A DNA stretch of 6,926 nucleotides, from assembly GCF_003334385.1 (NCBI RefSeq), contig NZ_QOWN01000075.1; one strand, written 5' to 3'. Below the pieces are notes generated by a model. It searched no databases. It was given only the letters and a program-made list of their open reading frames with translations, and had not been told where the DNA came from. The translations under genes and the position numbers were made by a program. This document shows positions 3,492 to 3,826 of the stretch, piece by piece; positions within the stretch are counted from its first letter, which is position 1; every line of letters begins with the position of its first letter. Origin of the DNA: Escherichia coli. Lineage in GTDB: Bacteria; Pseudomonadota; Gammaproteobacteria; Enterobacterales; Enterobacteriaceae.

Positions 3492-3496
3492 GTGAT

Positions 3497-3564
3497 ACCT
3501 GCCGTCAGGTGTTCGTGCACCGGGCCATAACTTGCAGTCGGGAGTTGAACTCCTGACGGCAGGT
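3497..3564. repeat. Inverted repeat with 13-bp perfect arms (ACCTGCCGTCAGG / CCTGACGGCAGGT) separated by 42 bp, immediately after the tnpC stop
   Basis: 3497-3509 is the exact reverse complement of 3552-3564. Confidence 0.8.
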
Positions 3565-3630
3565 TATGAGCCAGACCAGCAACCACGCGGGCTGACAGCG
3601 AATAAGAACCTGAATCAGCCCGGAGTCATT

Positions 3631-3712
3631 CCCGGGTCAGTACATCATCACCTGCTATTAATCCCCGAGTCAGTACTTCGCGGCCTGACGCGATCACCCT
3701 ACTCAGTACTTC
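3631..3712 (+). repeat. Three direct repeats, CCC-N3-TCAGTACWTC, at an exact 33-bp period inside the IS66 3' non-coding region
   Basis: TCAGTAC starts at 3637, 3670 and 3703, each preceded by a C-rich stretch. A degenerate fourth copy (GAGTCAT) lies at about 3622. Confidence 0.7.
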
Positions 3713-3826
3713 AGAGCCCGCCTCCGGTACCTGCCTGGCGATCGCCCCTGTGCAACAAAATAAATCAACCGTTATCAAACCACGATCGTTCGTATGCGCC
3801 GCCGATGACGCGCGCCTGAAAAACGC

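Follow-up and report, generated by a model that had tools for sequence, protein, structure and literature searches.

A conserved 33-nt repeat unit in the non-coding right-end tail of ISEc49-like insertion sequences of the IS66 family

Subterminal arrays of binding sites are well known in Tn7, phage Mu and IS21, where the inner sites are similar to the terminal site, are found at both ends in inverted orientation and keep a fixed distance from the tip. A second arrangement is found in maize En/Spm (the 12-bp motifs of TNPA), in Ac/Ds (the AAACGG repeats) and in the internal sites of the P element, where the motifs are distinct from the terminal repeat and a separate protein or domain reads them. 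Tandem direct repeats are also the substance of the F-plasmid sopC locus, in which each 43-bp repeat carries a short inverted repeat, and in the IS110 and IS605 families the discovery of RNA cofactors came as a surprise. IS66 is a large family of insertion sequences whose transposition mechanism and accessory proteins, TnpA and TnpB, are to our knowledge still not understood. Here we analyze a decayed IS66-family element, a copy of ISEc49, in a 6,926-nt stretch of Escherichia coli DNA (assembly GCF_003334385.1, contig NZ_QOWN01000075.1; hereafter the window, to which coordinates refer). Downstream from its transposase gene, tnpC, the element has a long non-coding tail with a one-sided array of 33-nt units unrelated to the terminal repeats. 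Such an array in a clade of IS66 is, for the literature searched, new: neither the tail nor its repeats are described there, although most subscription-journal work, including the main IS66 studies, and ISfinder were outside our reach.

The array resembles those of IS21, Tn7 and Mu in having several direct copies of a motif of ∼20-30 bp just inside a transposon end, but its units are unlike the terminal repeats, lie at the right end only and stand at a variable distance from the tip. Dissimilarity to the terminal repeats is shared with En/Spm, Ac/Ds and the P element; those systems, however, are eukaryotic and have motifs at both ends, whereas the ISEc49 sites are putative. The 33-bp direct repeats with GTCAG...CTGAC recall sopC, but ISEc49 has no partition protein, only one to five units, and its array sits inside an insertion sequence. 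As in IS200/IS605, with their right-end RNAs, and in IS110, with its bridge RNA, a non-coding segment adjoins the transposase gene at the element end; ISEc49 differs in that its tail lacks covariation, an Rfam match and a promoter-like site, and in that the proteins are unrelated. Finally, the tail is like Rho utilization (rut) sites in offering ∼200 nt of C-rich, G-poor untranslated sequence right after the stop codon, with no intrinsic terminator, but such sites are not defined by an invariant decamer. The window element itself is a copy of ISEc49/ISSfl3, with tnpA, tnpB, tnpC, the 8-bp target duplication and the GTAA-type right tip in common, and differs from it in that its tnpB and tnpC are frameshifted.

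All matches to the tail in unrelated contexts (traX, trbE, a hemagglutinin gene) end at position 3853, which makes it part of the mobile element. Measured up to the right inverted repeat it is about 323-337 bp long, which agrees with an initial annotation of the window that had placed about 335 bp between the tnpC stop and the right inverted repeat of an IS66-family element. Full-length 2766-bp copies are present in 205 complete E. coli genomes, and one E. coli strain carries this form at 10 chromosomal places, with further copies on its plasmid; the element is therefore active with its tail. Of 5426 complete E. coli genomes, 2810 (about half) contain tail DNA as such, mostly as remnants, and the remnant type of strain K-12 accounts for most of these ∼2800 genomes.

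To place the tail within the family, we collected relatives of TnpC by protein search and contig look-ups (a search of genome contigs with TnpC gave one locus only), and retrieved 12 of them, with element ends placed from the inverted repeats and target duplications. Relatives at 45%-89% identity are found in many Enterobacterales; every other IS66 member has at most 38%. In a quick neighbor-joining distance tree of TnpC, computed without support values, the eight elements with a tail all group together as a single clade, to which the tail-less elements are sister and outgroups (one of five relatives outside the clade, L143, had a tail that could not be read). The simplest reading is that the ISEc49/ISSfl3 clade of IS66 gained the tail once and then kept it. 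Retention extends over five genera and down to ∼57% TnpC identity. The long tail first noticed in one element is thus common property of this clade, and relatives outside it have 30-60 bp after tnpC (Table 1).

Within the tail of the window, the heptamer TCAGTAC occurs at 3637, 3670 and 3703, in exact 33-bp steps, and nowhere else in the window. None of 300 dinucleotide-preserving shuffles, our chance test for repeats, produced three periodic 7-mers (0/300). The heptamers belong to a unit for which 36 copies give a strong consensus, AnTaCCCGngTCAGTACTTCAnnaCCtGaC, that is, A-T-ACCCG-N-G-TCAGTACTTC-N4-CCTGAC. This 33-nt unit occurs as one to five direct copies spaced 33-35 bp apart, in the tail only and in a single orientation. 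Units -1 and 0 add to units 1-3 (Table 1), so that the array has up to five members. The CCTGAC of unit -1 is invariant in nine of 10 aligned elements, the Cedecea element (L018) reading CCTGAG, and at unit 0 Serratia has TCAGTAC, where other E. coli lineages have TCAGAAC.

The argument for conservation centers on unit 2. Across 10 aligned elements from five genera, CCTGAC and seven of the 10 core positions of this unit are invariant, the only departures being TCAGTACTGC in L008 and TCAGTAGTCG in L017, a lineage with changed cores (CAGTACTCT and CAGTAGTCG). Outside the units, the tail has drifted to 48%-58% identity between genera. Furthermore, only copies without an intact annotated tnpC (L004, L006, L007, L008, L009, L010 and L011) have a mutated or missing unit 2, which elements with intact genes always retain unchanged. 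The invariance of the unit amid drifted surroundings, together with the confinement of its decay to broken copies, is good evidence that the unit core is under purifying selection.

The conservation of the tail as a whole has a different meaning. Among E. coli lineages, identity is 86%-98% over the final ∼150 bp of tnpC together with the tail, and ∼70% over the rest of the element. Relative to L002, an intact copy of the window element, the identities of tnpC and tail are 85% and 98% in L001, 81% and 58% in L015, and 70% and 89% in L005; taking L005 and L016 together, tnpC is at 67%-70% and the tails at 74%-89%. The block of high identity begins ∼150 bp inside tnpC, with a breakpoint near element position 2250. 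Because the pattern is reversed in L015, and because the phylogenies of tail and tnpC disagree, we conclude that right ends have been exchanged between lineages, which implies recombination between co-resident IS66 lineages. We considered and rejected the idea that the tail is constrained because it is better conserved than tnpC, since this similarity reflects right-end exchange, and for the same reason we base the argument for selection only on the unit core.

Such a mosaic right end (L015 and L005 departing in opposite directions) is what one would expect if the tail were a functionless passenger, the relic of an old insertion followed by tandem duplication of the 33-bp unit, kept by rare loss and by right-end recombination. 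The changes of unit number through 33-bp deletions and the dispensability of the distal 90 bp also fit this explanation; indeed, the distal ∼90 bp are found in the E. coli and Serratia tails and are missing from those of Salmonella, Pantoea and Cedecea. We nevertheless consider a relic quite unlikely: neutral drift to the level seen around the units cannot leave a 10-mer and a 6-mer nearly invariant in 10 elements, unit 2 has been hit only in dead copies, and the tail has been kept across five genera while TnpC diverged to little more than half identity.

The tail also contains inverted repeats. A perfect 13-bp inverted repeat, in which ACCTGCCGTCAGG (3497-3509) pairs with CCTGACGGCAGGT (3552-3564) across a 42-bp spacer, extends to 18 nt with 94% complementarity, and was reached in 0/300 shuffles (shuffle maximum, 11). 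Each of its arms is a near-palindrome ACCTG-N4-CAGGT that contains CCTGAC/GTCAGG, and its sequence is conserved. This inverted repeat and the exact 33-bp period of the heptamers had both been pointed out in the initial annotation, and both exceed chance, the 33-bp repeat being kept across genera as well. Two further elements listed there are present but remain at chance level. The second hairpin (3587-3623) is 8/9 complementary, with GCGGGCTGA facing the reverse complement CCGGGCTGA in an 8-bp stem; since 77 of 300 shuffles (26%) have arms of at least 8 bp, it does not by itself exceed chance. The perfect 10-bp palindrome GGCGATCGCC at 3737-3746 has counterparts of at least 10 bp in 68 of 300 shuffles (23%), and it is not kept in relatives, which read GGCGCTCGCC (L005) and GGCGGTCGCC (L012).

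A small protein gene in the tail, whether the 95-amino-acid plus-strand open reading frame (ORF) or an annotated minus-strand ORF, is the least probable explanation, and we regard it as excluded for practical purposes. The ORF exists at 3532-3819, with TTG as its only start codon; in several lineages the plus-strand frame runs on for 77-125 codons without a stop, and PGAP annotates hypothetical proteins here in some records, though at different positions from record to record. Among eight homologs, however, variable tail columns are spread evenly over the three phases (44/50/51), with no third-position excess, whereas the adjacent 700 bp of tnpC in the same lineages show 107-111 changes at third positions versus 31-50 at first and second positions. 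In L005, L004 and L006 the frame of the tail is shifted by single-base indels, and neither the 95-amino-acid ORF nor two minus-strand ORFs match any NCBIfam model. On these grounds a protein-coding tail was rejected, and the view that the ORF is an artifact holds.

Other families keep small RNAs in this part of the element, after the transposase gene and before the right end, and the tail could likewise encode a discrete structured or guide-like RNA that works with the IS66 proteins as the IS200/IS605 or IS110 RNAs do. The inverted repeats do fold, with z-scores of about -2 on either strand, and a helix proposed by RNAalifold pairs TGACGCG of unit 2 with CGCGTCA of the right inverted repeat, in which Pantoea has a matching triple change to AGA. 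We consider this explanation very unlikely, nevertheless. A search of the whole window against Rfam, on both strands and with E-values up to 1, gave no match. In an alignment of 13 tails of E. coli type and from Serratia, where low divergence limits the power, covariation in the 18-pair inverted repeat and in the two local hairpins was no better than in shuffles, the observed values being reached in 362/500 and 413/500 of them; most changes in helices break pairs, and nine of the 18 pairs of the inverted repeat depart only by unpaired cells. As for the helix between unit 2 and the right inverted repeat, the E. coli-type lineages show all four G/A combinations at its variable base (four concordant, three discordant), and in Cedecea and the two Salmonella elements the pairing is lost; being not significant, it was rejected. 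Moreover, unit 3 keeps TCAGTACTTC and has lost the complementarity of its arms. It is the sequence that is conserved, and not the pairing. The promoter scan found no promoter-like site inside the tail, and IS66 TnpB, described as an accessory protein in NCBIfam NF033819, is unrelated to the RNA-guided TnpB of IS605. An 8-nt complementarity between CTCCGGTA in the tail (3721-3728) and the ribosome-binding site of tnpA was also dropped, as by eye it is not conserved in L005, L016 and L015. Of the initial proposal of protein sites or a structured RNA rather than spacer, what stands is that the tail is no mere spacer and has a selected unit; a structured RNA finds no backing in folding on both strands (z only about -2), covariation or Rfam. 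We give similarly low credence to the more general possibility that the tail is transcribed into a functional RNA, as a processed 3' untranslated region or from its own promoter, whose UCAGUACUUC motifs and CCUGAC arms would be read by TnpA or TnpB.

We therefore suggest, tentatively and at somewhat less than even confidence, that the tail is a cis-acting module in which the units are sequence-specific DNA recognition sites for a protein, probably one encoded by the element. An invariant decamer plus hexamer calls for a sequence-specific reader, and the suggestion is supported by unit 3 keeping its decamer and not its pairing, by the restriction of the units to the tail in one orientation, and by the existence of a candidate binder in TnpA. 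The units lie ∼135-235 bp downstream from the tnpC stop, preceded by an inverted pair of half-sites containing CCTGAC. The likeliest binder would be TnpA, a small protein with a weak helix-turn-helix match (HTH_Tnp_1), or a domain of TnpC that binds DNA but is not the domain recognizing the terminal repeats. Only the right end would be marked or regulated by such binding, which could help to assemble or to restrain a complex at the right inverted repeat or, alternatively, hold freshly made protein beside its own element copy. That the reader is a protein, which protein it is and what its binding does we infer from sequence. The phased protein-binding sites proposed initially agree with this in so far as conservation acts at the sequence level; a strict requirement for three phased sites is unlikely, because copy number varies.

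Several observations weigh against this suggestion. The units bear no resemblance to the terminal inverted repeats, plus-strand cores with up to two mismatches cluster only in the tail, the left end has no unit, and the number of units ranges from one to five. Their position is near-constant across genera when measured from the tnpC stop (cores at 146/179/212, 151/185/218 and 147/180/213), but the last core lies 85-150 bp from the right tip depending on the lineage; classical end-binding sites of transposases behave in the reverse way, and the pattern fits a link to the 3' end of tnpC. An array that is one-sided, unlike the terminal repeats and anchored to the tnpC stop weakens the classical picture of end binding. 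Close relatives without the tail carry the same three genes, and the invariance would be accounted for just as well by a conserved host protein or by recognition of the RNA. For host factors, we found no convincing match to IHF, TrpR, LexA, NarL or DnaA, judged by their consensus sequences, and we claim none.

We also looked for traces of the units at the ends of the element. Local alignment of six units with 10 terminal repeats was no better than shuffles, save for isolated hits expected from 120 tests, and the idea that the units are internal copies of the terminal repeats was rejected. A candidate unit at the left end was rejected as well: the conserved GTCAGTTAGCAT at that end is consistent with a -10 element, and its GTCAGT part, which is lost in L005, lies in the spacer of the probable tnpA promoter. 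This promoter has a -35-like TTCACA inside the left repeat and, in the window, a -10-like TAGTAT at ∼1154-1159; the -10 of the conserved left-end block is TAGCAT.

The position relative to the tnpC stop also speaks for the main rival, according to which the tail is the 3' untranslated region of the tnpABC message, and its C-rich, G-poor repeats load Rho or bind an RNA-binding protein. Transcription would then end, or the message be stabilized, before the right inverted repeat and the exit from the element. The GC skew switches from about +0.1 to +0.3 in the profiled part of tnpC (3200-3500) to -0.16 to -0.35 over 3580-3800, and every tail, even where divergence is strong, keeps an excess of C over G (overall skew, -0.11 to -0.19; minima over 80 nt, -0.33 to -0.43). 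No intrinsic terminator (a G+C-rich hairpin with a T run) was found in 3300-4000 on either strand, the units are fixed relative to the tnpC stop and not to the tip, and all have one orientation. Nevertheless, Rho loading needs composition and no fixed decamer, which leaves the invariance of TCAGTACTTC and CCTGAC unexplained; the skew may follow from the C-rich units themselves, and the tail-less relatives manage. Although it ranks ahead of the other alternatives, we judge it unlikely and less probable than DNA recognition sites.

The array appears to be confined to this kind of element. A metagenome scan for two cores at 31-35-bp spacing returned 80 loci, of which 24 are tails or remnants of ISEc49-type elements, and the array was not found elsewhere in these data. 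The other 56 match neither the tail nor TnpC and are mostly short tandem repeats with the decamer only, as confirmed in the five that were inspected. Four environmental contigs (L023, L024, L026 and L048) carry long tandem arrays with periods of ∼34-45 bp that contain TCAGTACTTC, L026 also having CCTGAC; with no other tail similarity and no TnpC nearby, we took these as unrelated.

Some tails stand in unusual surroundings. In K-12 (L004, 3271-3800, between an eptA-like pseudogene and insG of IS4), the gene "yjgZ" is followed by an unannotated tail remnant that lacks two 33-bp units, and from its coordinates the yjgZ ORF appears to be a C-terminal fragment of an ISEc49-like tnpC. In E. coli O145 and O157:H7 (L012 and L013, 3501-4010), a complete tail to 3854 is followed after 6 bp by a partial second tail (3861-4010) that corresponds to the last 150 bp of a tail, giving two tandem right ends, and the tnpC upstream of them is split by an IS682 insertion. 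The E. coli tail remnant L008 has at ∼3580-3610 an insertion of ∼30 bp, TGCAAAATGGCATCTGAATCGATCGCAGTTTGG, identical to window 4143-4178 at the left boundary of the IS21-family element described below, of which it may be a footprint.

Table 1. Features of the window, with the length of the sequence after tnpC in related elements
Feature	Position or length	Strand	Remarks
Non-coding tail, tnpC stop to right tip of the element	3492-3853	+	362 bp
Large inverted repeat	3497-3564		arms 3497-3514 and 3547-3564
Unit -1, GTCGGG-AGTTGAACT-CCTGAC (GTCGGG-N9-CCTGAC)	3537-3557	+	inside large inverted repeat
Unit 0	3601-3624	+	degenerate; overlaps second hairpin
Unit 1	3628-3657	+	core TCAGTACATC at 3637-3646; most variable unit
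Unit 2	3661-3690	+	core TCAGTACTTC at 3670-3679; CCTGAC at 3684-3689
Unit 3	3694-3723	+	core TCAGTACTTC at 3703-3712; degenerate 3' arm CCCGCC
Distal segment	3724-3814	+	lineage-specific; with GGCGATCGCC (3737-3746) and A-rich AAAATAAATCAACC (3757-3770)
Right inverted repeat	3815-3853	-	tip inward: GTAAGCTTCCGGGGAACTCATATTGACGCGTTTTTCAGG
Left inverted repeat	1111-1149	+	alignment of left ends
ISEc49 copy (IS66 family), decayed	1111-3853	+	2743 bp; intact form 2766 bp
tnpA	1198-1527	+	109 amino acids; ORF list, NCBIfam
tnpB, disrupted	∼1514-1893	+	comparison with intact copy
tnpC, DDE transposase	1900-3491	+	frameshifted into two ORFs (1900-2673, 2670-3491); stop at 3489-3491
Ag43-like autotransporter gene, C-terminal part	45-1019
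Small membrane-protein ORF	3885-4091		cut by IS21-family element
Tail, L002 and L005 (E. coli)	361-362 bp
Tail, L015 (Salmonella)	303 bp
Tail, L017 (Salmonella)	285 bp
Tail, L016 (Serratia)	364 bp
Tail, L018 (Cedecea)	223 bp
Tail, L020 (Pantoea)	323 bp
After tnpC, L019 (Yersinia)	60 bp
After tnpC, L142 (Salmonella)	60 bp
After tnpC, L144 (E. coli)	55 bp
After tnpC, L021 (Photorhabdus)	53 bp
After tnpC, IS682 (E. coli)	about 30 bp

The window contains part of an autotransporter gene, the IS66-family element, a small membrane-protein ORF and an IS21-family element. An intact copy of the IS66-family element (L002, strain RM8082, 2766 bp) matches the IS66 models of NCBIfam over the cut-off for TnpA (NF047593, 48 bits; cut-off 28), TnpB (NF033819, 112; cut-off 50) and TnpC (NF033517, 433; cut-off 180). 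The closest TnpC cluster is named "ISEc49 family" (97% identity), a related one "ISSfl3 OrfC", and close TnpC relatives have PF03050, PF13005, PF13007 and PF13817 among their precomputed Pfam domains. The element lies between two copies of its 8-bp target duplication, GCATTAAC (1103-1110 and 3854-3861), and other ISEc49 copies have different 8-bp duplications. In strain G1/2, which has an identical locus, tnpC is likewise annotated as frameshifted. The terminal inverted repeats are imperfect; the right tip begins GTAAGC. The left tip of ISEc49 is GTGTCG (1111-1116; L002, 1597-1602), where most relatives examined have GTAA, and ISEc49 is multi-copy in some strains despite this left tip.

Some observations concern the neighboring sequences. 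Twenty base pairs past the autotransporter stop, at 1040-1064, a perfect 12-bp inverted repeat (GGTCCCGGTCAT / ATGACCGGGACC, arms 1 nt apart) is probably the terminator hairpin of that gene. The IS21-family element at 4140-6790, with istA frameshifted and istB intact, interrupts the ORF that starts at 3885, and in the identical locus of strain G1/2 it is annotated as ISSso4-like. At its left end TTGGCAT is repeated five times at ∼23-bp spacing (4181, 4204, 4228, 4251 and 4273; span, 4181-4279), with related copies at the right end; these are the multiple terminal repeats typical of IS21.

From the array one would expect the IS66 system to have a second activity that recognizes DNA or RNA, for which tail-bearing elements and their close tail-less relatives offer a natural comparison. 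Were the tail a Rho-loading 3' untranslated region instead, it would show an insertion sequence insulating its right end from its own transcription, and a functional tail RNA, if real, would be an RNA cofactor for transposition or copy-number control in this clade of IS66. The array also accounts for a conserved segment that lacks annotation in roughly half of the complete E. coli genomes, the K-12 remnant beside yjgZ among them.

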